Assembly: GCA_041658665.1 (NCBI GenBank)
Contig: JBAZZR010000002.1
Coordinates: forward strand, 9,147-73,146
DNA length: 64,000 nt
From: Patescibacteria group bacterium
Lineage (GTDB): Bacteria > Patescibacteriota > Patescibacteriia > Patescibacteriales > UBA12465
Reading direction: 5' to 3'
Positions 48,073 through 55,630 of this stretch are shown piece by piece. The notes below the pieces were generated by a model. It was not told the origin of the DNA. It did not search any database and saw only the letters and a list, made by a program, of their open reading frames with translations. Within the stretch, counting starts at the first letter, position 1. Every line of letters starts with the position of its first letter. The translations under genes and the position numbers were made by a program.

Positions 48073-49050
48073 ATGCTGACTCAGGATGCTAAAAATAAAA
48101 CCCGCTTAATTTTTATGGGCACGCCAGATTTCGCTGTCCCTGGTTTAATGAGTTTAATAGCGACACCGGATTTTGCCATAATCGGCGTCTTTACGCAAAG
48201 CGATAAACCGATCGGACGAAAACAATTATTAACTCCAACGGCAATAAAAACGACGGCTCTCCAAAATAATTTAAAAATTTTCCAGCCAGTAAAAATAAAA
48301 ACCACCACGGAGATTATCCGCTCACTAAAACCAGACTTAATTGTGGTCATCGCTTATGGCCAAATAATCCCGCCCGATATTTTAGCTATCCCGACTTATG
48401 GCTGTCTTAATGTCCATGCTTCCCTCCTGCCGAAATATCGAGGAGCCGCTTGCCTCAACGTTCCGATCTTAAACGGTGATGAGGAAACGGGAATAACAAT
48501 CATGAAAATGGAGGCTGGTTTAGACACCGGGCCAATATTAAAACAGATAAAAATAAAATTGAACGGCCAAGAAACCTTAGAAACCGTTCATGATAAACTA
48601 GCGGCTTTGAGCGCTGACTTATTAATCCCGACCTTGCGCGATTTTCTAGCAAAAAAAATAAAACCAAAAGAACAAGATGAATCCCAGGCGAGCTATGTTA
48701 AAACCTTAAAAAAGGAGGACGGCCGCATAAACTGGAAAAAAACCGCGCTGGAAATAGAACGGAGTGTTCGCGCTTATAATCCTTGGCCGGGGACTTATAC
48801 TTTAATGATAACGGGCGACGACCAAGAATCTCATCATAAAATTATTAAAATATTAAAAACAGAACATCAACCATTAGCCATAAATAAATACAAAATTGGC
48901 GAGATATTTAAGGAAAATAATAAATTAATGATCCAATGTGGACAAGATTCTTTAGTTATATTAAACTTACAAATTGAAGGGAAAAAGGCTTTATCAGCCG
49001 AAGAATTTATCAGAGGCTATAGTAGCTTAATTGGACAAACCCTTAATTAA
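48073..49050 (+). CDS. fmt: methionyl-tRNA formyltransferase
   Basis: HASLLPKYRGAA motif, N-terminal formyltransferase fold, follows def. Confidence 0.9.
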   Translation: MLTQDAKNKTRLIFMGTPDFAVPGLMSLIATPDFAIIGVFTQSDKPIGRKQLLTPTAIKTTALQNNLKIFQPVKIKTTTEIIRSLKPDLIVVIAYGQIIPPDILAIPTYGCLNVHASLLPKYRGAACLNVPILNGDEETGITIMKMEAGLDTGPILKQIKIKLNGQETLETVHDKLAALSADLLIPTLRDFLAKKIKPKEQDESQASYVKTLKKEDGRINWKKTALEIERSVRAYNPWPGTYTLMITGDDQESHHKIIKILKTEHQPLAINKYKIGEIFKENNKLMIQCGQDSLVILNLQIEGKKALSAEEFIRGYSSLIGQTLN

Positions 49051-49054
49051 ATAT

Positions 49055-49126
49055 GGTCCCTTCGTCTAACGGTTAGGACGCCAGGTTCTCATCCTGGTAA
49101 CAGGGGTTCGATTCCCCTAGGGACTA
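49055..49126 (+). tRNA. tRNA-Glu (anticodon CTC)
   Basis: Acceptor GGTCCCT/AGGGACT, anticodon arm CCAGG-TTCTCAT-CCTGG, T-arm AGGGG-TTCGATT-CCCCT. Confidence 0.9.
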
Positions 49127-49170
49127 CTATTGGGGAACTAGCGTGTGCCAGTTCTCTTTTCGTTTGTAGA

Positions 49171-49245
49171 ATTAGGGAAATTTTAGGTGTTCGATTTCCT
49201 GTAAAATCAAAAAAAGGTTTTTCGAGAAAAATAAAGCTCCTGTAT
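49171..49245. repeat. degenerate/truncated copy (U0) of the cassette junction element, abutting tRNA-Glu
   Basis: Shares gtaaaatcaaaaaaagg and agctcc with U3 (tataaatcaaaaaaagctcc), plus a weak match to the right half of the core (gaaat, aaaattt). Confidence 0.4.
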
Positions 49246-49264
49246 CTATTGGTAAAATTGATAT

Positions 49265-49849
49265 TTAATTATTAATTTCAACATCTACCAAGCTATACGG
49301 AATCCCCTGTTCTTTAACTAAAGACTTAATTTTCTTTTGTTCCTGGCTATACATTTCTTGGAAAGTGGCAAAACCTCCTTGCACCAATCTTTTGTTGCGA
49401 TGAAGGGCCCAAACCGGGTGCACTCGCTCCTTGTGGGTCGAGCGCTCTTCTATCGCCTCTTCAGTAACGATCGGGACAAAGACGAAAGTCGGCAGATTTT
49501 TTAATTTATTAATGATTTTCTCGTACTGAGCTATCATGTCAGGACTGGATGAGACAGTAAAAATGGCGTAGGAGATATGGAATCGATTAAGTATAAAAAC
49601 CGCGTTGCTGTCATCGCGAAGAATTTTTTCACAATAATTTAAAAAGTGCTCATAAAAATTAAGCCTGATCGCATCGATATCTTCGATCCAAGCGTGTTTC
49701 CAGGTAAACAAAAGTTCTTCTTCATAATAATCATATATTGTCTTACCGGACAGCATTCCTTCAATTTGCTTTTGGAGAGTATTTTTTCCTGCACCGGCGA
49801 TTCCTTCAATTATAAATAATCTAGCGGCTGGCAATGATGTAATTTTCAT
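49265..49849 (-). CDS. P-loop NTPase, (deoxy)nucleoside/nucleotide-kinase-like
   Basis: Walker A FIIEGIAGAGKNTL near the N-terminus; size and layout resemble the dNK/dTMP-kinase fold. Confidence 0.55.
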   Translation of the reverse strand: MKITSLPAARLFIIEGIAGAGKNTLQKQIEGMLSGKTIYDYYEEELLFTWKHAWIEDIDAIRLNFYEHFLNYCEKILRDDSNAVFILNRFHISYAIFTVSSSPDMIAQYEKIINKLKNLPTFVFVPIVTEEAIEERSTHKERVHPVWALHRNKRLVQGGFATFQEMYSQEQKKIKSLVKEQGIPYSLVDVEINN

Positions 49850-49859
49850 ATCGAATAAA

Positions 49860-50975
49860 TTATTTACTCAAATTCTTATAAATTATTTCACCGTCATCCT
49901 TAATTTCAAAAATTCCCACCTCTCCCTCCGGTAGGTAATATAAATTAATTGTTCTTTTTTCGCCCGGGATGGTTTCATATTTGTCATGATCAATTGTTTG
50001 TCCTCCGAACAGACGCAACTTAGCTTTTCCCGATTCATCGAAATCTAAAAAGTTTATTCCCGCCGCCAAAGTTTCACGCGAAACATGCATGTGCCCACAA
50101 GCAACGTAAATATCTGCCTTTGCTGGTAGCCGGCGACATAGCTCCATAAGATATTTACTTACAGGCAAAAACTGTTTGTAGGGGACTCTTTCTGAATCTG
50201 GCAAATTAGCTTGTTTAACTTGTTTTTCATAAACTCCAGGTTTTTTTGGGCCTTTAAACGGAGTCTCGTGAGCAAAAATCAATATACTCTTTTTATCTTT
50301 ATTCAATTGAGCAAAATCATCAATGGTTTTTTCTAAACTATTAGTTTGTTCGGCATTCTTTTCGTCAACTTTAAATGAAGGCCAAAAAATAACGGAGGTC
50401 TTATCATCTAAAGGCAAATTCAAAGGCTTATCATAAGAATCCACTCCGGCTTCTTTTAACAATTCTTGTGTCGCTTCTAGTTTCTGAGGGAAGGGTCTAT
50501 CAGCATTTCCCATAATATGGCGAACATCACTTTTCAATTCTGAAAGTCGGCTGGTTACATCTTTAATAGATTGTCTCATGTCTGCCATTGCTTGATCTAA
50601 TTCGCCTCTACTTTTTGCCATCCATAAAGCATAAACGGCAATATCTTGTTCCATTCCTATATTTTTTTGTTGCTCCTTAAAAATATGATATTCTGGAGAT
50701 TCTATAATTTTAATATATTCCTCAACCTCCAATGATAGTTTATCCGTCTTTTTTTCTTTGTCATAACGTAAAGCCAGGCCCTTTGCTTCTTTAACATACT
50801 CAGAAAGTATTCCGCTACCCGCTAAATCCCCAATATGAACTATAAAGTCTAAATTCTCTCCGTGATTTTTTAAAGGCTCTAGGGCTTCATCGAGTTGTTG
50901 CCCTTTTCTTCCTTGGGTATCAGAAATAATGCCGAAACGGTAATTTTGATTCCCCATTTTATCAGGATTCATCAT
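49860..50975 (-). CDS. atypical calcineurin-type metallophosphoesterase with a ~100-aa helical insertion
   Basis: Motifs ISDTQG, HIGDLAGSG, GNADRP, FAHETP and ACGHMHV. Confidence 0.7.
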   Translation of the reverse strand: MMNPDKMGNQNYRFGIISDTQGRKGQQLDEALEPLKNHGENLDFIVHIGDLAGSGILSEYVKEAKGLALRYDKEKKTDKLSLEVEEYIKIIESPEYHIFKEQQKNIGMEQDIAVYALWMAKSRGELDQAMADMRQSIKDVTSRLSELKSDVRHIMGNADRPFPQKLEATQELLKEAGVDSYDKPLNLPLDDKTSVIFWPSFKVDEKNAEQTNSLEKTIDDFAQLNKDKKSILIFAHETPFKGPKKPGVYEKQVKQANLPDSERVPYKQFLPVSKYLMELCRRLPAKADIYVACGHMHVSRETLAAGINFLDFDESGKAKLRLFGGQTIDHDKYETIPGEKRTINLYYLPEGEVGIFEIKDDGEIIYKNLSK

Positions 50976-51063
50976 ACATTTATTTACATTATTTATCCCT
51001 TATTTTACATTTATAATAGCAAAAATTGACCTTTTTTGCAATATTTTTGATTTTTTACATAAT

Positions 51064-51199
51064 TCAATAAGTCTTAATAATTTCCGCCCATCTCCCAATC
51101 TCCTTAACCATCCCCTCAAAATTTTGAGAAATTTCAGACTTTAAGACTACCAATAAAAAAGCGGCAGTAATTTTACTCCGCTTTTTGTGTTAATTTTCC
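51064..51199. repeat. cassette junction element U1 (70-nt core 51081-51150 plus hairpin 51161-51181 plus T-run)
   Basis: Core is 56/70 identical to U2 and 57/70 to U3 (hand count). The hairpin gcggcagtaattttactccgc is flanked by A6 and T5. Shares the tgttaatttt tail with U3. Confidence 0.85.
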
Positions 51200-51924
51200 C
51201 TCAACCAAGTGTTTATGCCTATAATCGCGGCAAAACATAACTCTTGGTCAGAATGAAAATCGATGTTATGTAAATCAAATCGTTCTGATTTATCCGCATC
51301 ACGATTTTTAGTCCATGATAGCCAACGTCCGCTCATGTTCACTTGGATAAAGAATGATTCTCTGCTAATAGTAATTTGGTCGTAAGACAATTCTTCTTTG
51401 AAAAAATAATTATATACCCTCTTTAATTCAGAGATTACATAACTATTTAATGTTACCAAATCTTCATCGCTTAGAGAATAAAGTCTTTTTTTAAACCAAG
51501 GGTATAATTGCCCACCAATAGAATAACCACCCATTTGATAGCCCCCATCAAAAATAACGAAAGAGAGTGCCTGGTCATCCCAAACTGCTTCAGAAAAGAA
51601 TTCTTTTTCATAGAACATTTGTTCAACCACGTAATAGGTGGCTAAATAAACTGTTAGCAACATTTTCCGCATGGCTATATCATTATCTTTTTCTGGAAAG
51701 TTAAACTTATATATTATATAATCGTTTTCCTCTCCTTGTATTTTAAAACAACCGCCAAAACCGAACATTGCCCCGCCGATATGAAATTCCCCTAGATAAG
51801 AATACTTCTCCATCAAGGGGCTGTCGATCTTAAATAGCGCAACTGGCGCCGACTTATTTTGAAAAAAATTCTTATGAATTTTTAAAAAATAAGTATTTTC
51901 CTTGAGTATTAAATCTAGTATCAT
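51190..51924 (-). CDS. orphan protein, function unknown
   Basis: 244-aa ORF with an AAGGA ribosome-binding site upstream. I recognise no motif. Confidence 0.5.
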   Translation of the reverse strand: MILDLILKENTYFLKIHKNFFQNKSAPVALFKIDSPLMEKYSYLGEFHIGGAMFGFGGCFKIQGEENDYIIYKFNFPEKDNDIAMRKMLLTVYLATYYVVEQMFYEKEFFSEAVWDDQALSFVIFDGGYQMGGYSIGGQLYPWFKKRLYSLSDEDLVTLNSYVISELKRVYNYFFKEELSYDQITISRESFFIQVNMSGRWLSWTKNRDADKSERFDLHNIDFHSDQELCFAAIIGINTWLREN

Positions 51925-51989
51925 GATTTTTCCTTTTTAATGTGCAATATTTTATTTATTATTAACATTAGTATTAAATAGTTGATAAG

Positions 51990-52107
51990 TCAATTCTTTA
52001 AAACTTCCGCCCATTTCTCAATCTCCCCAATAATCCCGTCAAAATTTTGGCAAATGTTAGATCTTAAGACTACGAAATCAAACAACTCGTCTGAAGGCGA
52101 GTTTTTT
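51990..52107. repeat. cassette junction element U2 (70-nt core 52004-52073 plus hairpin 52084-52103 plus T6)
   Basis: Core is 56/70 identical to U1 and 54/70 to U3. Hairpin aactcg-tctgaagg-cgagtt is followed by tttttt. Confidence 0.85.
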
Positions 52108-52121
52108 GATATACTTTCAAT

Positions 52122-52859
52122 ATGAATAATTTTGGAAACTTTAGCAAACTAGAAAAAAATTATAAATTTATTAGACCTAGTTATCCGACCAGGGTAATTA
52201 GAGATATTTATTATCTCATCAAAACTCCGCATCCAATTATTTTGGATTTGGGATGCGGCACTGGAATTTCTACTCGACAAATGGCAAAAAAGAACTCAAG
52301 AATATTTGGCTGCGATATTGATGAAAAGATGTTTGCTAACGCTTCCAAGGATAAAAATATTACATATATTAAAGGTAGCGCGGAGAAACTCCCCTTTCCG
52401 GACAAAACCTTCGACCTTATAACTATGTTTGCCGCTTTCCACTGGTTTTCGAACAAAAAAGCAATAAATGAGATGCGTAGAGTTTTAAAACCAAAAGGAG
52501 CTATATATATAGTACAACAAAAACATACATCACCTTTCAGTCATGACCATAAAGAAATAATCAGTAAAGTGTTAGGAGCCACTATAAAAACAAAATATAG
52601 CAAAAGAAAATTTGAAGATGTTCTGGCACAAAATAATTTCGAAATCATTGAAAACAAAATCTATAAAACTATTAATAAATATACCTTAGGACAATTTCTT
52701 AAACTGTTGCAATCTTATAGTATTTGGAATGAAGTCCCAGTCTCAAAACGCAAACAAATTATAAAATTGTTCAAAAGTCACTTTAGAACAATGCTGAAAA
52801 ACGGCTTAATTCACGATGCAGCTGACCTTTATTTAATTTGTGCTAAACCAAACCTTTAA
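52122..52859 (+). CDS. class I SAM-dependent methyltransferase
   Basis: ILDLGCGTG motif I, FDLITMFAAFHWF, and LKPKGAIYIV post-II region. Confidence 0.85.
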   Translation: MNNFGNFSKLEKNYKFIRPSYPTRVIRDIYYLIKTPHPIILDLGCGTGISTRQMAKKNSRIFGCDIDEKMFANASKDKNITYIKGSAEKLPFPDKTFDLITMFAAFHWFSNKKAINEMRRVLKPKGAIYIVQQKHTSPFSHDHKEIISKVLGATIKTKYSKRKFEDVLAQNNFEIIENKIYKTINKYTLGQFLKLLQSYSIWNEVPVSKRKQIIKLFKSHFRTMLKNGLIHDAADLYLICAKPNL

Positions 52860-52882
52860 TACGAACCATAATTTAAAAAGTA

Positions 52883-53009
52883 CTATTTACAAATTTCCAT
52901 CCATTTCTCGATTTCCCCAACAATCTCATTAAAATTTTGAGAAATTTCAGACTTTAAGACTATAAATCAAAAAAAGCTCCATTTTTTGACGCCTTTTTTT
53001 GTTAATTTT
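52883..53009. repeat. cassette junction element U3 (70-nt core 52894-52963 plus weak A/T hairpin plus T-run)
   Basis: Core is 57/70 identical to U1 and 54/70 to U2. Its tail ...cctttttttgttaatttt matches the U1 tail. Confidence 0.85.
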
Positions 53010-53017
53010 ATTGACAA

Positions 53018-53521
53018 CTAATTTTTTAAATTAAAATCTAATACTTCCTGCACTTTATTTTCTAATTTATTAAAAACATTTTTTAGATGCGATCCCTTGA
53101 CCTGCACAGTCTTGGTCGGAATAACTGGACTGAACAATAACCAATCCTGCTCATAAATTTTGGGGTCGACATAAATATTATATTGAGAGTCGAAACCGAA
53201 CGGGTAAGCACAGCCAGGCTGTGCTCCAAAATGTTTATTCAACTCTTCGGGAGAACAAAGCTTAAGTTTTTTAACGCCTAATTTTTCTTTAATAACTTCA
53301 AAATTAATCTTCTGTCCATGCAAGGTAATATAAACAATCATACTGTCATCGGCTTTTAAAACTAAACACTTCATTTCTGTCCCGATGAAACCCGTTTCTT
53401 TCTGCACCTTGGCTAACTCCTCATAAGTTAAAGCCTCCCTATGAGAAAAGAGTTTATAATCGACACGACTATTATTAAGGAGATTTATTAGTTTTTCATA
53501 AATGTTTTTTGAGTCAGTCAT
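53018..53521 (-). CDS. YbaK/ProX-type aminoacyl-tRNA deacylase domain protein
   Basis: 167 aa with KCLVLK and GCAYPFG motifs, typical of the YbaK editing fold. Confidence 0.75.
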   Translation of the reverse strand: MTDSKNIYEKLINLLNNSRVDYKLFSHREALTYEELAKVQKETGFIGTEMKCLVLKADDSMIVYITLHGQKINFEVIKEKLGVKKLKLCSPEELNKHFGAQPGCAYPFGFDSQYNIYVDPKIYEQDWLLFSPVIPTKTVQVKGSHLKNVFNKLENKVQEVLDFNLKN

Positions 53522-53586
53522 ATATTAATCCCTAACCGCTTTATATAGAATATCGTGTCCGAATTTCGAAAGTCATGCCATCCGGC

Positions 53587-54183
53587 TTAATTAATTTTTT
53601 TGCTCCTCTCTCTCCAGACATGCCAAGCACTAGGTAAAATAGAAAGTACAATAATTAAAATAATTATCGGCAAAAGATATCGATCGACGCCTGGAATAAG
53701 ACTACCAAGAAAATAACCTAATAGAGATAAGCCGAGAGACCATAAGGCGCCGCCGATTAAATTATAAACAATAAAAGTTCGATAAGGCATAGTACCAACT
53801 CCGGCTAAAATCGGCACGAAGGTGCGAACGACCGGCAAGAAACGCGCTAAGACAATAGTCTTAGAGCCATGTTTCTTAAAAAATTTTTCTGCCTTATAAA
53901 CATTATTCTTATTGAAAAACCAGGAGTCCTCTTTACTAAAAATCGCCGGACCGATTTTTTCTCCAAACATATAGCCGGCACTATCGCCTAAAACGGCGGC
54001 TATAAAAGTTAAACCCATTAAGAGCCAAATATCTAAAAAACCTTGCGAAGCTAAAAAACCGGCGGTAAACAGTAAGCTATCGCCCGGAAAGAAAAAACCA
54101 ATAAGTAGCCCCGACTCGGCAAAAATAATCCCAAAGAGACCAAAATATCCCGCTGTTTTTATTAGGGCTACTAAATCAAACAT
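53587..54183 (-). CDS. DedA family membrane protein
   Basis: FFPGDSLLF and GDSAGYMFGEKIG motifs. Confidence 0.85.
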   Translation of the reverse strand: MFDLVALIKTAGYFGLFGIIFAESGLLIGFFFPGDSLLFTAGFLASQGFLDIWLLMGLTFIAAVLGDSAGYMFGEKIGPAIFSKEDSWFFNKNNVYKAEKFFKKHGSKTIVLARFLPVVRTFVPILAGVGTMPYRTFIVYNLIGGALWSLGLSLLGYFLGSLIPGVDRYLLPIIILIIVLSILPSAWHVWRERSKKIN

Positions 54184-54210
54184 AAATAAATAAAAATAAT
54201 AAAAATCAAA

Positions 54211-54669
54211 CTAATTTGATTTATCTAATTTCTTCTCTAAACGATCAAGCTGATCATTAATACTTCGTACCTCTACCATTAGTCGACTAATAGTAGAAAT
54301 ATCCGCTTTAATTTCCTGTTCGGTCTTTTCCGCTAATTTTTTCTCGCCCTTAAGCCCGGAAATAATAATTTCATTACCGATGAAACTAGAAACAAATAAA
54401 CCGACCAGGAGCAGTAAAATCATGCCAAATAGAATAGACAGCGGCCCGTCCCACCAAGGTAGAACACTCGCCGAAATTAAAGAAACGGCAGTCGCCTGGT
54501 CTTTAGCTAACGCATTCATTAAGAAATCAACCGTGTTCCAAATGCCCCGCCAAAAAATAATAATCCCAGCCCCGCCGATAAAAGCATAAACTAAAGGGTA
54601 ATGGCTTAAATAGGCTCTCACCTTATCTTCTAAACGATCACCAAAATTATAAAGTTTTTTTAGAATCAT
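54211..54669 (-). CDS. membrane protein with a C-terminal coiled coil (hypothetical)
   Basis: 152-aa ORF overlapping the terC stop by 23 nt. Confidence 0.4.
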   Translation of the reverse strand: MILKKLYNFGDRLEDKVRAYLSHYPLVYAFIGGAGIIIFWRGIWNTVDFLMNALAKDQATAVSLISASVLPWWDGPLSILFGMILLLLVGLFVSSFIGNEIIISGLKGEKKLAEKTEQEIKADISTISRLMVEVRSINDQLDRLEKKLDKSN

Positions 54670-55630
54670 AAACGGCTTGTAAATTATGTTGTTTAGATGT
54701 TAATAAAGATAAAATAATCGAAGAAACTAAAATTAAAATTATGACAAAAAATGAAGCGACCGAAGAAATATGAATATTAACTAGACTAGATAACATTTTA
54801 AAACCAATAAACAAAAGAATTAAAGCCAGACCCTTCTGCAGGTGGCGAAAACGTTGTAAAACATGATCAATCAGAAAAAATAAGGCTCGCAAACCTAAAA
54901 CCGCGAAAATGTTGGAAGTGAAAACAATAAAAAAACTTTGGGAAATAGCGAAAACCGCCGGAATAGAGTCAACTGCGAAAACTATATCGGTGGTCTCCAC
55001 TAAAAGAAGAATTAGAAATAAAGAAGTAAAAACTAAATGTCCCTTCTCTTTCACAAAAAAATGACCGTCATGATGAGCCGTACTAAACGGTAAGTAACGC
55101 CGCGCCGCCTTCATGATTCGATTGTTCTCGAGATTAAGATGTTTATTCTCCCGACTCGCGAAAAGACTTATCCCCGTATAAAGTAACACTAAACCAAAAA
55201 CATAAAGAACCCAATGAAATTGATAAATGATATAAGCGCCGGCGCTAATAAAAACCCCTCGAAATATCATCGCTCCCAGGATACCCCAAAATAAAGTCCG
55301 ATGATAATATTTCTCCTCTAATTTAAAATAATTAAAAATTAACATCATCACGAATAAATTGTCGACCGAGAGCATTTTTTCAGTAACATAGGCGCTAAGA
55401 AATTCCGCAGCGGGATCGCGCCCAATAAACCAAAAAATTAAACCAGCGAAAACTAAAGAAATACCGACCCAAAATAATGATTGATAAAGAGCTTCCTTAT
55501 ATTCGATGCGATGGCTTTTACGATTAAAATAGCCTAAATCTAAAATCAAAAAAATGCCAACAATGCTGACAAACAATAAAAATAAATAAGATTGGGCGGA
55601 ATGAAACATATCGTAATTTAAAAGTATCAT
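54647..55630 (-). CDS. TerC family integral membrane protein
   Basis: Paired TEKMLSVDNLFV and VETTDIVFAVDSIPAVFAI motifs. Confidence 0.85.
   Translation of the reverse strand: MILLNYDMFHSAQSYLFLLFVSIVGIFLILDLGYFNRKSHRIEYKEALYQSLFWVGISLVFAGLIFWFIGRDPAAEFLSAYVTEKMLSVDNLFVMMLIFNYFKLEEKYYHRTLFWGILGAMIFRGVFISAGAYIIYQFHWVLYVFGLVLLYTGISLFASRENKHLNLENNRIMKAARRYLPFSTAHHDGHFFVKEKGHLVFTSLFLILLLVETTDIVFAVDSIPAVFAISQSFFIVFTSNIFAVLGLRALFFLIDHVLQRFRHLQKGLALILLFIGFKMLSSLVNIHISSVASFFVIILILVSSIILSLLTSKQHNLQAVYDSKKTL

Follow-up and report, generated by a model that had tools for sequence, protein, structure and literature searches.

In staphylococci, the staphylococcal cassette chromosome elements (SCC/SCCmec) are integrated by the large serine recombinases (LSRs) CcrAB and CcrC at the extreme 3′ end of one conserved gene, rlmH; repeated integration builds tandem arrays, recombinase-less units (pseudo-SCC) are delimited by repeated attachment (att) sites, alternative att pairs permit single or composite excision, and the cargo consists of accessory and defence genes. 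Among the cis-mobilizable elements (CIMEs) as well as the integrative and conjugative elements (ICEs), exemplified by ICESt1/3 of Streptococcus thermophilus and by phage-ICE tandems, att-flanked non-autonomous units in tandem with an autonomous element can be co-excised and transferred with it. Integron attC sites are imperfect inverted repeats of 57-141 nt that are conserved as a fold, and integron cassettes are mostly promoterless, single-open reading frame (ORF) units in one orientation. In the Sulfolobus viruses of SSV1 type, attP lies in the int gene where it overlaps a tRNA, and integration by this tyrosine recombinase splits the gene into two non-functional parts. Here, we describe an array in a 64,000-nt stretch of contig JBAZZR010000002.1 from a Patescibacteria group bacterium (the window, meaning the whole stretch analysed), in which a tRNA-Glu gene is followed by unrelated genes that are punctuated by a ~75-nt junction element, designated ELEM (core AAAAYTTCCGCCCAYYTCTCAATTTCCCCAAYAATCYCRTYAAAATTTTGAGAAATWTCAGACTTTAAGACTAC). 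Comparison with related loci makes it likely that window positions 49128-52963 are a composite island built by serial LSR-mediated integration at the tRNA-Glu 3′ end, ELEM being an arm derived from attP.

In functional terms, the nearest counterparts of the array are SCC/SCCmec islands, tycheposons and CIME/ICE accretion. It resembles SCC/SCCmec in its LSR, in the use of a conserved gene 3′ end and in tandem units with and without a recombinase. However, the target is a tRNA gene (Glu, or Arg in one variant) instead of rlmH, and the separators are a conserved 75-nt arm sharing 6-8 nt with the target, whereas those of SCC are 15-18-bp direct repeats of the target. Furthermore, the putative attP lies inside the 3′ coding end of the recombinase itself, whose C-terminal tail would be exchanged, and the elements carry a rolling-circle Rep and reside in Patescibacteria; the likeness to Ccr considered here is that of the general LSR fold (for composite SCC/SCCmec islands, compare the abstract of PMC11470126). 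Tycheposons of Prochlorococcus are tRNA-seeded islands with modular cargo, in which older elements are pushed inward, degenerated integrases and att remnants occur throughout the island, and a minority use an LSR (Hackl et al., bioRxiv 10.1101/2020.12.28.424599). Both systems have tRNA-seeded serial integration, decayed integrases and modular cargo, but tycheposon junctions are ~40-nt partial tRNA copies and their recombinases are mostly of the tyrosine type, whereas here a non-tRNA junction of 75 nt shares only the terminal hexamer with the tRNA, and every unit starts with its own terminator. As in CIME/ICE tandems, non-autonomous att-flanked units stand beside an autonomous element (the abstract of PMC13651849 mentions "site-specific accretion"); those systems use tyrosine integrases and conjugation, whereas an LSR and a small rolling-circle replicon are found here, with putative mobilisation in trans. 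With SSV1 the array shares an attachment site in a recombinase ORF that overlaps a tRNA, so that integration would alter the recombinase coding sequence; unlike in SSV1, only the last ~25 LSR codons would be exchanged for ~12 tRNA-antisense codons. No such system in Patescibacteria was described in the literature searched, and the distinguishing features are the long junction arm that is not derived from the target, the putative attP in the LSR 3′ end, the rolling-circle backbone, the per-unit terminator and the Patescibacteria host.

The distribution of ELEM was examined by scanning species-representative genomes, metagenome contigs and viral contigs with an exact pattern taken from the right half of the core. 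This pattern scan found 23 loci in the genomes and 71 metagenome contigs, and no ELEM in the viral contigs; each of the 23 genome loci either bore a Patescibacteria label or could be recognised as belonging to that group (Falkowbacteria, Paceibacterota, Saccharibacteria and others). A profile search over the collected loci, cited here by L numbers, gave 139 ELEM copies at 95 loci, in co-oriented arrays with accessory genes. All 38 multi-copy loci had their copies in the same orientation, spaced 0.5-4 kb apart, and the 103 distinct ELEM sequences had a median pairwise identity of 85%. ELEM copies terminate in GACTAC, which is the 3′ hexamer of tRNA-Glu (...CCCCTAGGGACTAC), the exceptions being the third window copy (GACTAT) and variants of the tRNA-Arg type. 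Sequences 5′ of the core are unrelated between copies, and 3′ of ELEM and of tRNA-Glu alike lie an A-rich spacer, a hairpin of variable sequence and a T-run, with a median fold energy of about -15 kcal/mol for the 50 nt after GACTAC. Sequence reaching at least 4 kb upstream of the first ELEM was available for 20 loci; in 15 of them a co-oriented tRNA-Glu preceded this ELEM, and never was a tRNA-Glu oppositely oriented or downstream of ELEM; 3 of the other 5 were cut inside a recombinase element.

This distribution bears on whether ELEM is a generic intergenic repeat near terminators, of the repetitive extragenic palindrome (REP) or miniature inverted-repeat transposable element (MITE) kind, with no role in mobility. 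ELEM is indeed short, mostly non-coding, intergenic and multi-copy. However, the only copies in the 64-kb window are 3 that lie within 2 kb; copies appear to be few per genome and are confined to tRNA-Glu-anchored, co-oriented arrays; the ELEM alignment has neither terminal inverted repeats nor target-site duplications; and cassette breakpoints coincide with the ELEM end. A scattered repeat, which the earlier note on this DNA had held up against its own idea, is thus highly improbable.

The features of the window locus are as follows.

49055-49127, + strand: tRNA-Glu(CUC) gene (ARAGORN; Rfam tRNA, 62.5 bits)
49122-49127, + strand: GACTAC, the last 6 bases of tRNA-Glu and proposed attB-side crossover core
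49092-49247, - strand: 3′ remnant of an LSR gene, last 52 codons, overlapping tRNA-Glu in antisense (tblastn)
49132-49156: tRNA-Glu terminator hairpin, inside the LSR remnant
49128-51150: cassette 1, with LSR remnant, kinase-like and metallophosphoesterase-like cargo and ELEM copy U1
49265-49849, - strand: kinase-like ORF, with similarity at the level of Walker A only
49860-50975, - strand: metallophosphoesterase-like ORF, with a weak N-terminal Metallophos match
51075-51150, + strand: ELEM U1, ending in GACTAC at 51145-51150 (nhmmer E 3e-19)
51151-52073: cassette 2, with A-rich spacer, terminator hairpin, 244-aa orphan, promoter region and ELEM U2
51161-51181: hairpin and T-run after U1 (-14.6 kcal/mol)
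51190-51924, - strand: 244-aa orphan ORF, without a Pfam family match
51998-52073, + strand: ELEM U2, the end of cassette 2
52074-52963: cassette 3, with terminator hairpin, S-adenosylmethionine (SAM) methyltransferase and ELEM U3
52084-52103: hairpin and T-run after U2 (-15.4 kcal/mol; terminator scan positive on both strands)
52122-52859, + strand: SAM methyltransferase (Pfam Methyltransf_11, 6.7e-26)
52888-52963, + strand: ELEM U3, ending in GACTAT instead of GACTAC (nhmmer E 2.5e-20)
52964-53017: stretch after the last ELEM, with weak A-run, hairpin and T-run, which also serves the 3′ end of ybaK
53018-53521, - strand: ybaK (Pfam tRNA_edit/YbaK, 8e-19), followed by dedA

The earlier note, made from the letters alone, had described five genes with no pathway link between tRNA-Glu and dedA, bounded by one co-oriented junction element. 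An nhmmer profile built from the three repeats recovered them at 51075-51151, 51997-52075 and 52889-52963, all on the + strand with E of ~1e-19 to 1e-23, and no further copy with E <1 in the window; the hand-counted core identities (56/70, 57/70 and 54/70) were exact on recomputation, and the tRNA and five ORFs stood where they had been placed (ARAGORN, Rfam and the ORF list). Among the gene labels, methyltransferase, YbaK and family-less orphan held, whereas the kinase and phosphoesterase labels rest on the slight similarities listed above, as judged with Pfam and NCBIfam. The hairpin and T-run reported after each core are good after U1 and U2 and weak after U3, where U3 and the following stretch (52888-53010) had a fold energy of -12.7 kcal/mol. 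That every block is separated by a copy was overstated, as the kinase-like and phosphoesterase genes form a single block and no ELEM lies between ybaK and dedA. Its fourth, degenerate copy at 49171-49245 gave E=56 over 17 nt with the ELEM profile and is actually the LSR 3′ remnant. Likewise, the note rightly saw no intact integrase gene in the window but missed the 52-codon remnant of one.

The tail tgttaatttt that the note had seen after both U1 and U3 corresponds to (R)GTTAA(T), which follows the T-run of many junction hairpins (window 51182-51197 and 52993-53009; L019, L020, L023, L024 and L058) and is common to loci whose hairpins are otherwise unrelated.

The hairpin after each copy could also mean that ELEM is a + strand small RNA gene or 3′-UTR element with its own terminator, the arrays having arisen by duplication together with neighbouring genes. 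Consistent with this, the hairpins vary in sequence while their terminator-like shape is kept, the core is strongly conserved irrespective of codon position, and in 58 cases ELEM is preceded by the end of a + strand ORF, at a median distance of 26 nt, as a 3′ UTR would require. However, an Rfam 15 search of 48900-53700 with E up to 10 returned tRNA-Glu only and no ELEM match, and folding of the ELEM core gave no signal on either strand (z-scores -1.08 to +0.68), so that a structured RNA was rejected. No conserved promoter was found, and in 64 cases the upstream neighbour of ELEM is the 5′ end of a divergent gene. The terminator is more simply part of the next cassette, since it travels with that cassette, and duplication of an RNA gene leaves unexplained the shared GACTAC, the breakpoints at the ELEM end, the covariation with tRNA-Arg and the fusion to an LSR ORF that are described below. 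We therefore regard an RNA gene as quite improbable.

Other roles for ELEM were also set aside. An outward promoter was suggested by a -35-like TTGAGA in the core, but the -10 spacing is inconsistent across copies; a diverged tRNA half was rejected because nothing aligns to tRNA-Glu beyond the last 6-10 nt; and a protein-gene relic, to which the resemblance of the minus-strand frame to a conserved C-terminal peptide had pointed, was dismissed for lack of codon periodicity among close copies and of a start codon, although LSR homologues bearing an ELEM-type tail later brought the protein-coding idea back in another form.

The limits of cassette 2 lie precisely at GACTAC, the hexamer common to tRNA-Glu and ELEM. 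L058, a metagenome contig of 89.8 kb, encodes a homologue with 91% identity to the 244-aa orphan of the window, and the nucleotide identity between cassette 2 and L058 4067-4996 is 91.7% over 930 nt. In L058 this cassette directly follows a tRNA-Glu(UUC), whereas in the window it follows U1; the homology starts at GACTAC (the tRNA-Glu end versus the U1 end) and stops at the GACTAC of the cassette's own ELEM, and the flanking sequences are unrelated on both sides. These limits define the unit as a spacer with terminator hairpin, a gene with its promoter and an ELEM, and the two settings indicate that its left partner can be either a tRNA or another ELEM. Homology segments of at least 300 nt and at least 80% identity were then counted across all loci. 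Of 136 informative right-hand ends, 53 fell within 25 nt of the ELEM end in both partners, and left-hand ends fell either at GACTAC or just past the hairpin. Near-identical pairs split 8-12 nt past ELEM (L005/L028, 99.9%; L061/L068/L052, 98.8%), a case of strain-level polymorphism. Relatives thus do not carry one fixed gene order, a possibility that the earlier note had raised, but are polymorphic at the level of cassettes; these data, the anchoring of arrays on tRNA-Glu and the recombinase-bearing relatives described below strongly favour its suggestion of tandem accretion at a tRNA 3′ end.

Cargo was highly diverse. The 44 inter-ELEM intervals hold 1-5 ORFs each, in either orientation, and a Pfam census of 150 neighbouring gene clusters recovered highly diverse accessory functions, including restriction-modification enzymes, AbiE-type toxin-antitoxin pairs, TrmB and other helix-turn-helix regulators, NUDIX, GNAT and radical SAM proteins. 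Across the loci, cargo also comprises further pairs of toxin-antitoxin type, Fic, a diversity-generating retroelement and many orphans. Such co-oriented small units, each with one or a few genes and a terminal recombination site, recall integrons or clusters of attC sites lacking integron integrases (CALINs), the other comparison drawn in the earlier note; ELEM would then be an attC-type site served by an integron-type tyrosine integrase encoded elsewhere. The comparison fails in several respects. ELEM is conserved in sequence and is unstructured, whereas attC is conserved in structure as a folded imperfect palindrome; cassette genes face either way, with 84-128 nt of promoter space that leaves room for their own promoter and terminator, and several units hold 2-5 genes; and the arrays begin at tRNA-Glu instead of an attI/intI pair. 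Moreover, among the top 25 families listed from the census, Resolvase/LSR is the sole recombinase family, with neither IntI nor any other tyrosine recombinase. An integron-like origin with such an integrase is accordingly very unlikely.

A gene-less module, M190, was found in addition, with 33 copies at 28 loci and none in the window. It is GC-rich, measures ~165-190 nt and forms a cassette of its own after tRNA-Glu or ELEM (e.g., L023 1510-1722; L063 1472-1685; L009 56-271; L029 896-1111 and 2657-2875). Its layout is a terminator hairpin, GCAACTAGGGGAATCGAAC..., stems with compensatory changes, ...GAGGCGAAATTCCCCTAGGGACTAC and the next hairpin; it opens with an inverted copy of the tRNA-Glu 3′ end and closes with a direct one of 10-17 nt. 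Rfam searches of the M190 module and ELEM in four loci gave no match, and M190 is possibly a structured RNA or else an origin of the single-strand type.

The recombinase itself was recognised through relatives. Window 49092-49247 (- strand) matches residues 456-507 of the 507-aa LSR of L019 with 84.6% identity (tblastn E 5e-21), and the window's homology to L019, L011, L021 and L103 ends at 49244. The L019 protein has the domains Resolvase (1.3e-36), Recombinase (5.7e-11) and Zn_ribbon_recom (1.7e-07); 304 LSR homologues were found, and the closest relative with a solved structure, by sequence, is the catalytic domain of TP901-1 integrase. Intact LSR genes stand directly against tRNA-Glu in L019/L055, L044, L077, L095 and L103, and against a partial tRNA-Glu 3′ half in L011. 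These loci continue with a rolling-circle Rep of family PF23343, a conserved segment of ~450 nt that is probably the replication origin, variable cargo and 1-3 ELEMs. A backbone of 3.2 kb, in which tRNA-Glu, LSR, Rep and putative origin precede cargo and ELEMs, is common to nine loci, and a further four that are cut inside the backbone (L005, L015, L073 and L078) show Rep, the conserved segment, cargo and ELEM. Where the LSR is intact, it is always tRNA-proximal, with the ELEM cassettes distal, and LSR remnants follow internal ELEMs in L103, L044, L042, L043 and L090. L103, which comes from a scaffold of 823 kb, shares with the window the synteny ClpB ... def, dedA, fmt, tRNA-Glu, the nucleotide identity being 65-74%; it holds an intact LSR and Rep where the window holds the remnant, as well as two ELEMs, the first of which is followed by another, older LSR 3′ remnant. 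The comparison indicates that cassette 1 is a decayed autonomous element. Tandem accretion is seen here in tRNA-Glu anchoring, in the tRNA-proximal intact LSR and in distal LSR remnants and ELEMs; as far as sequence comparison goes, relatives also have the make-up of an LSR element, namely the domain set at the element edge, a common core and, in a circular contig, a putative attP junction.

The post-Rep segment also occurs alone: ~400 nt of it, 92% identical to L019 2856-3256, lies at L052 802-1200 and L068 11395-11793, directly after an M190 module and without a nearby Rep or LSR.

The 3′ end of the LSR gene proved to be tied to the junction. In integrated elements, the LSR frame includes the tRNA terminator hairpin, the arms of which are read as ..ELA..ASS..; it then passes across GTA GTC, the complement of GACTAC, into antisense tRNA, giving the C terminus ..SSPIVVPRGIEPLLPG. 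Such tRNA-antisense tails (..GIEP.., ..RIEL..) were present in ~110 of 120 LSR homologues, which indicates that abutting a tRNA 3′ end is a property of the LSR family. Four homologues (P0028, P0055, P0063 and P0084), however, carry a different tail, ..VPLREKISKRFNEIIGEIKRWARFL.. in P0028, ..VNYCLTNWNSLIDEIRRW.. in P0084 and ..VDYCIENLHPL(I/V)LDI(R/K)(R/K)W.. in P0055 and P0063, with the motifs ..NEIIGEIKRW.., ..HPLILDIRRW.. and ..NSLIDEIRRW... These tails match, in the same phase, the peptide of the ELEM minus strand (VVLKSEISQNFNEIIGEIEKWAEI). This minus frame is open over 24 codons in 94 of the 103 distinct ELEMs, that of U1 included, whereas the other minus-strand frames are open in 2 and 1 and the plus-strand frames in 2-14; replacements at its hydrophobic positions are conservative.

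As a side observation, the tRNA-Glu terminator hairpin GGAACTGGC....GCCAGTTCC (window 49132-49156; L019, L044 and L077) doubles as LSR coding sequence, its minus-strand codons E-L-A...A-S-S being part of the conserved LSR motif KRELAxASSP.

The same adjacency was found in what is probably a circular form. The ends of contig L104 (10,823 nt) overlap exactly over 30 nt and are bridged by a 420-aa ORF, on which its probable circularity is based. An ELEM variant there directly adjoins the LSR 3′ end and falls within the called LSR ORF, P0063; judged by its sequence, this junction is the configuration expected of attP. The cargo of L104 includes a DNA methyltransferase and a ResIII helicase/nuclease, likely a restriction-modification system. 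A tRNA-Arg variant is seen in L099, where the array downstream of tRNA-Arg(UCU) contains the P0028 LSR. The 3′ end of this tRNA, GGGGGTAC, is followed directly by an LSR 3′ remnant, and the two ELEM variants of the locus end in GGAGGGGTAC and GGAGGAGTAC. The ELEM terminus thus covaries with the target tRNA's 3′ end, which is the behaviour expected of an att core.

The cargo of L099-L102 (e.g., L099 1461-6026) includes a diversity-generating retroelement, next to Rep and the LSR variant; its parts are bAvd, an RVT_1 reverse transcriptase and two N_methyl/Fib_succ_major target genes.

Because a Rep of the HUH type accompanies the LSR, the cassettes could instead be moved by this protein through a single-strand mechanism like those of IS91/ISCR or IS608, with GACTAC beside the hairpin as nick or target site and ELEM as the recognised terminus. 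The PF23343 Rep is present in all autonomous elements; a short specific target, a left-end hairpin and strict co-orientation resemble single-strand transposons, and a variable hairpin beside a fixed cleavage motif would suit recognition by structure. On the other hand, the mobile cassettes lack the conserved putative origin near Rep, PF23343-type Reps are known as replication initiators, the junction lies within the LSR ORF whether the element is integrated or circular, ~110 of 120 family members abut tRNA 3′ ends, and the ELEM end follows the tRNA 3′ end in the manner of an att core. Movement by Rep is accordingly unlikely.

We therefore return to integration by the LSR, for which the following course is proposed. 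Autonomous members would be small replicons made up of terminator hairpin, LSR (- strand), PF23343 Rep (- strand), putative origin, variable cargo and ELEM. In the predicted circular form, ELEM-GACTAC is joined to hairpin, LSR, Rep, putative origin and cargo, which closes onto ELEM; ELEM would thereby abut the LSR 3′ end, encode its last ~25 codons and constitute the P half of attP. Crossover would take place in or beside the GACTAC common to ELEM and the tRNA-Glu 3′ end. Integration between tRNA-GACTAC and the original downstream sequence (B′) would yield tRNA, hairpin-LSR-Rep-cargo-ELEM and B′. The element's hairpin and LSR would come to lie beside the tRNA, the LSR frame entering the antisense tRNA and ending ...VVPRGIEPLLPG; its last ~25 codons would be swapped for ~12 tRNA-antisense codons, leaving the enzyme core intact. 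ELEM would remain at the far end as attR, with the former post-tRNA sequence right after it; the tRNA would receive a new terminator from the element, and the old one would end up after ELEM. Each newcomer is predicted to insert between the tRNA and the previous element.

Repeated tRNA-proximal insertion of this kind would generate a co-oriented array of units consisting of terminator, gene(s) and ELEM. The model would account for the different hairpin after each ELEM, which travels with the next cassette, for the tRNA-Glu- or LSR-type hairpin after the last ELEM in L016, L077, L044, L042, L043 and L090, and for the consistently tRNA-proximal position of the intact LSR. In L016, L077, L042, L043 and L090, a downstream hairpin of the tRNA-Glu type comes after the last ELEM; by analogy, window 52964-53017 may be the original post-tRNA-Glu stretch (B′) from before the first integration. 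Units without an LSR would be decayed elements or passengers. An LSR element that excised via a proximal ELEM as attR would leave an LSR-less cassette beside the tRNA, as in L058, whereas excision via a distal ELEM would carry cassettes along; passengers are thus probably moved by a resident LSR element using an alternative attR, that is, by accretion-mobilisation. The newest arrival in the window has lost LSR and Rep except for 156 nt, and the window array is therefore probably frozen unless an LSR acts in trans.

Several observations weigh against this model. All evidence is comparative, recombination not having been directly observed; the window itself has no intact LSR; and the circularity of L104 is based on a single de Bruijn-graph contig. 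Some shared cassettes start only past the hairpin (+50 to +55 nt) instead of at GACTAC. Partial tRNA-Glu 3′ halves of 45 nt, beginning in the anticodon loop, precede the LSR or its remnant (L011 3417-3461; L016 7139-7183, in a locus that also carries an intact tRNA-Glu at 579-651; L089 1464-1507), which would require a second kind of recombination, with an additional crossover point in the anticodon loop, that the GACTAC model does not explain. Among close ELEM copies, substitutions are hardly more frequent at the third codon position than elsewhere (38, 48 and 57), so that the ELEM tail is perhaps weakly constrained as protein. Finally, a serine integrase normally binds both half-sites specifically, in pseudo-dyad sites of ~40-50 bp; ELEM offers a conserved P side, and the P′ side is conserved in LSR-bearing elements (TATTGGGGAACTGGC...), but in LSR-less cassettes P′ is a variable A-rich spacer and hairpin.

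As for the surroundings in the window, the island has a GC content of 0.34 versus 0.395 for the window, which places it at the 4th percentile among windows of the same size, and a CpG observed/expected ratio of 1.05 versus 1.55. The earlier note's impression of a compositional difference from the flanks was thus borne out, the difference being modest. PADLOC found no known defence system in the window cargo, only a generic methyltransferase match. Between the last ELEM and tRNA-Lys/tRNA-Thr sits a block of ybaK, dedA, a 152-aa ORF and TerC (52964-55630) with a GC content of 0.353, below its flanks; L021 and L063, which have the same synteny as the window, hold other genes at this position. This block may be older cargo minus its ELEM, or core.

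Among the contigs searched, the window's own proteins were encoded only by the source contig and one 1.8-kb Logan contig. The latter (SRR8449812_126137, 1841 nt; L002/L004) corresponds to window ~51120-52960; it has 28-nt identical ends, and the U3 minus-strand frame was called in it as a 25-aa partial gene. Its terminal overlap was rejected as a sign of a circle, being an assembly break at the U1/U3 repeat. Since this independent assembly broke within U1 and U3, ELEM copies appear to fragment short-read assemblies of these genomes.

To our knowledge, the genomes of members of the Candidate Phyla Radiation (CPR, Patescibacteria) are tiny, few mobile elements have been recognised in them, genetic tools are lacking, and little is known of the ways in which accessory and defence genes are acquired. 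Sequence alone is enough to detect the widespread route that the locus reveals, by which genes are gained and lost at tRNA-Glu. ELEM provides a 75-nt marker that delimits horizontally acquired cassettes in metagenome-assembled genomes and explains assembly breaks there, and more than 300 serine integrases with natural tRNA 3′-end targets, together with small replicons, are candidate genetic tools for CPR bacteria. More tentatively, and with considerable doubt on our part, the system might be an LSR-run, integron-like capture platform, in which the choice of ELEM stacks, removes or exchanges units and the tail swap senses the state of the recombinase. If this were true, an ELEM-encoded amphipathic C-terminal helix (..ISQNFNEIIGEIEKW..) would be replaced by a tRNA-antisense tail on integration, and this exchange of tails could determine in which direction recombination runs, with no need for a separate directionality factor. 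The system thus offers a testable case of a recombinase whose C terminus would be rewritten by its own reaction.

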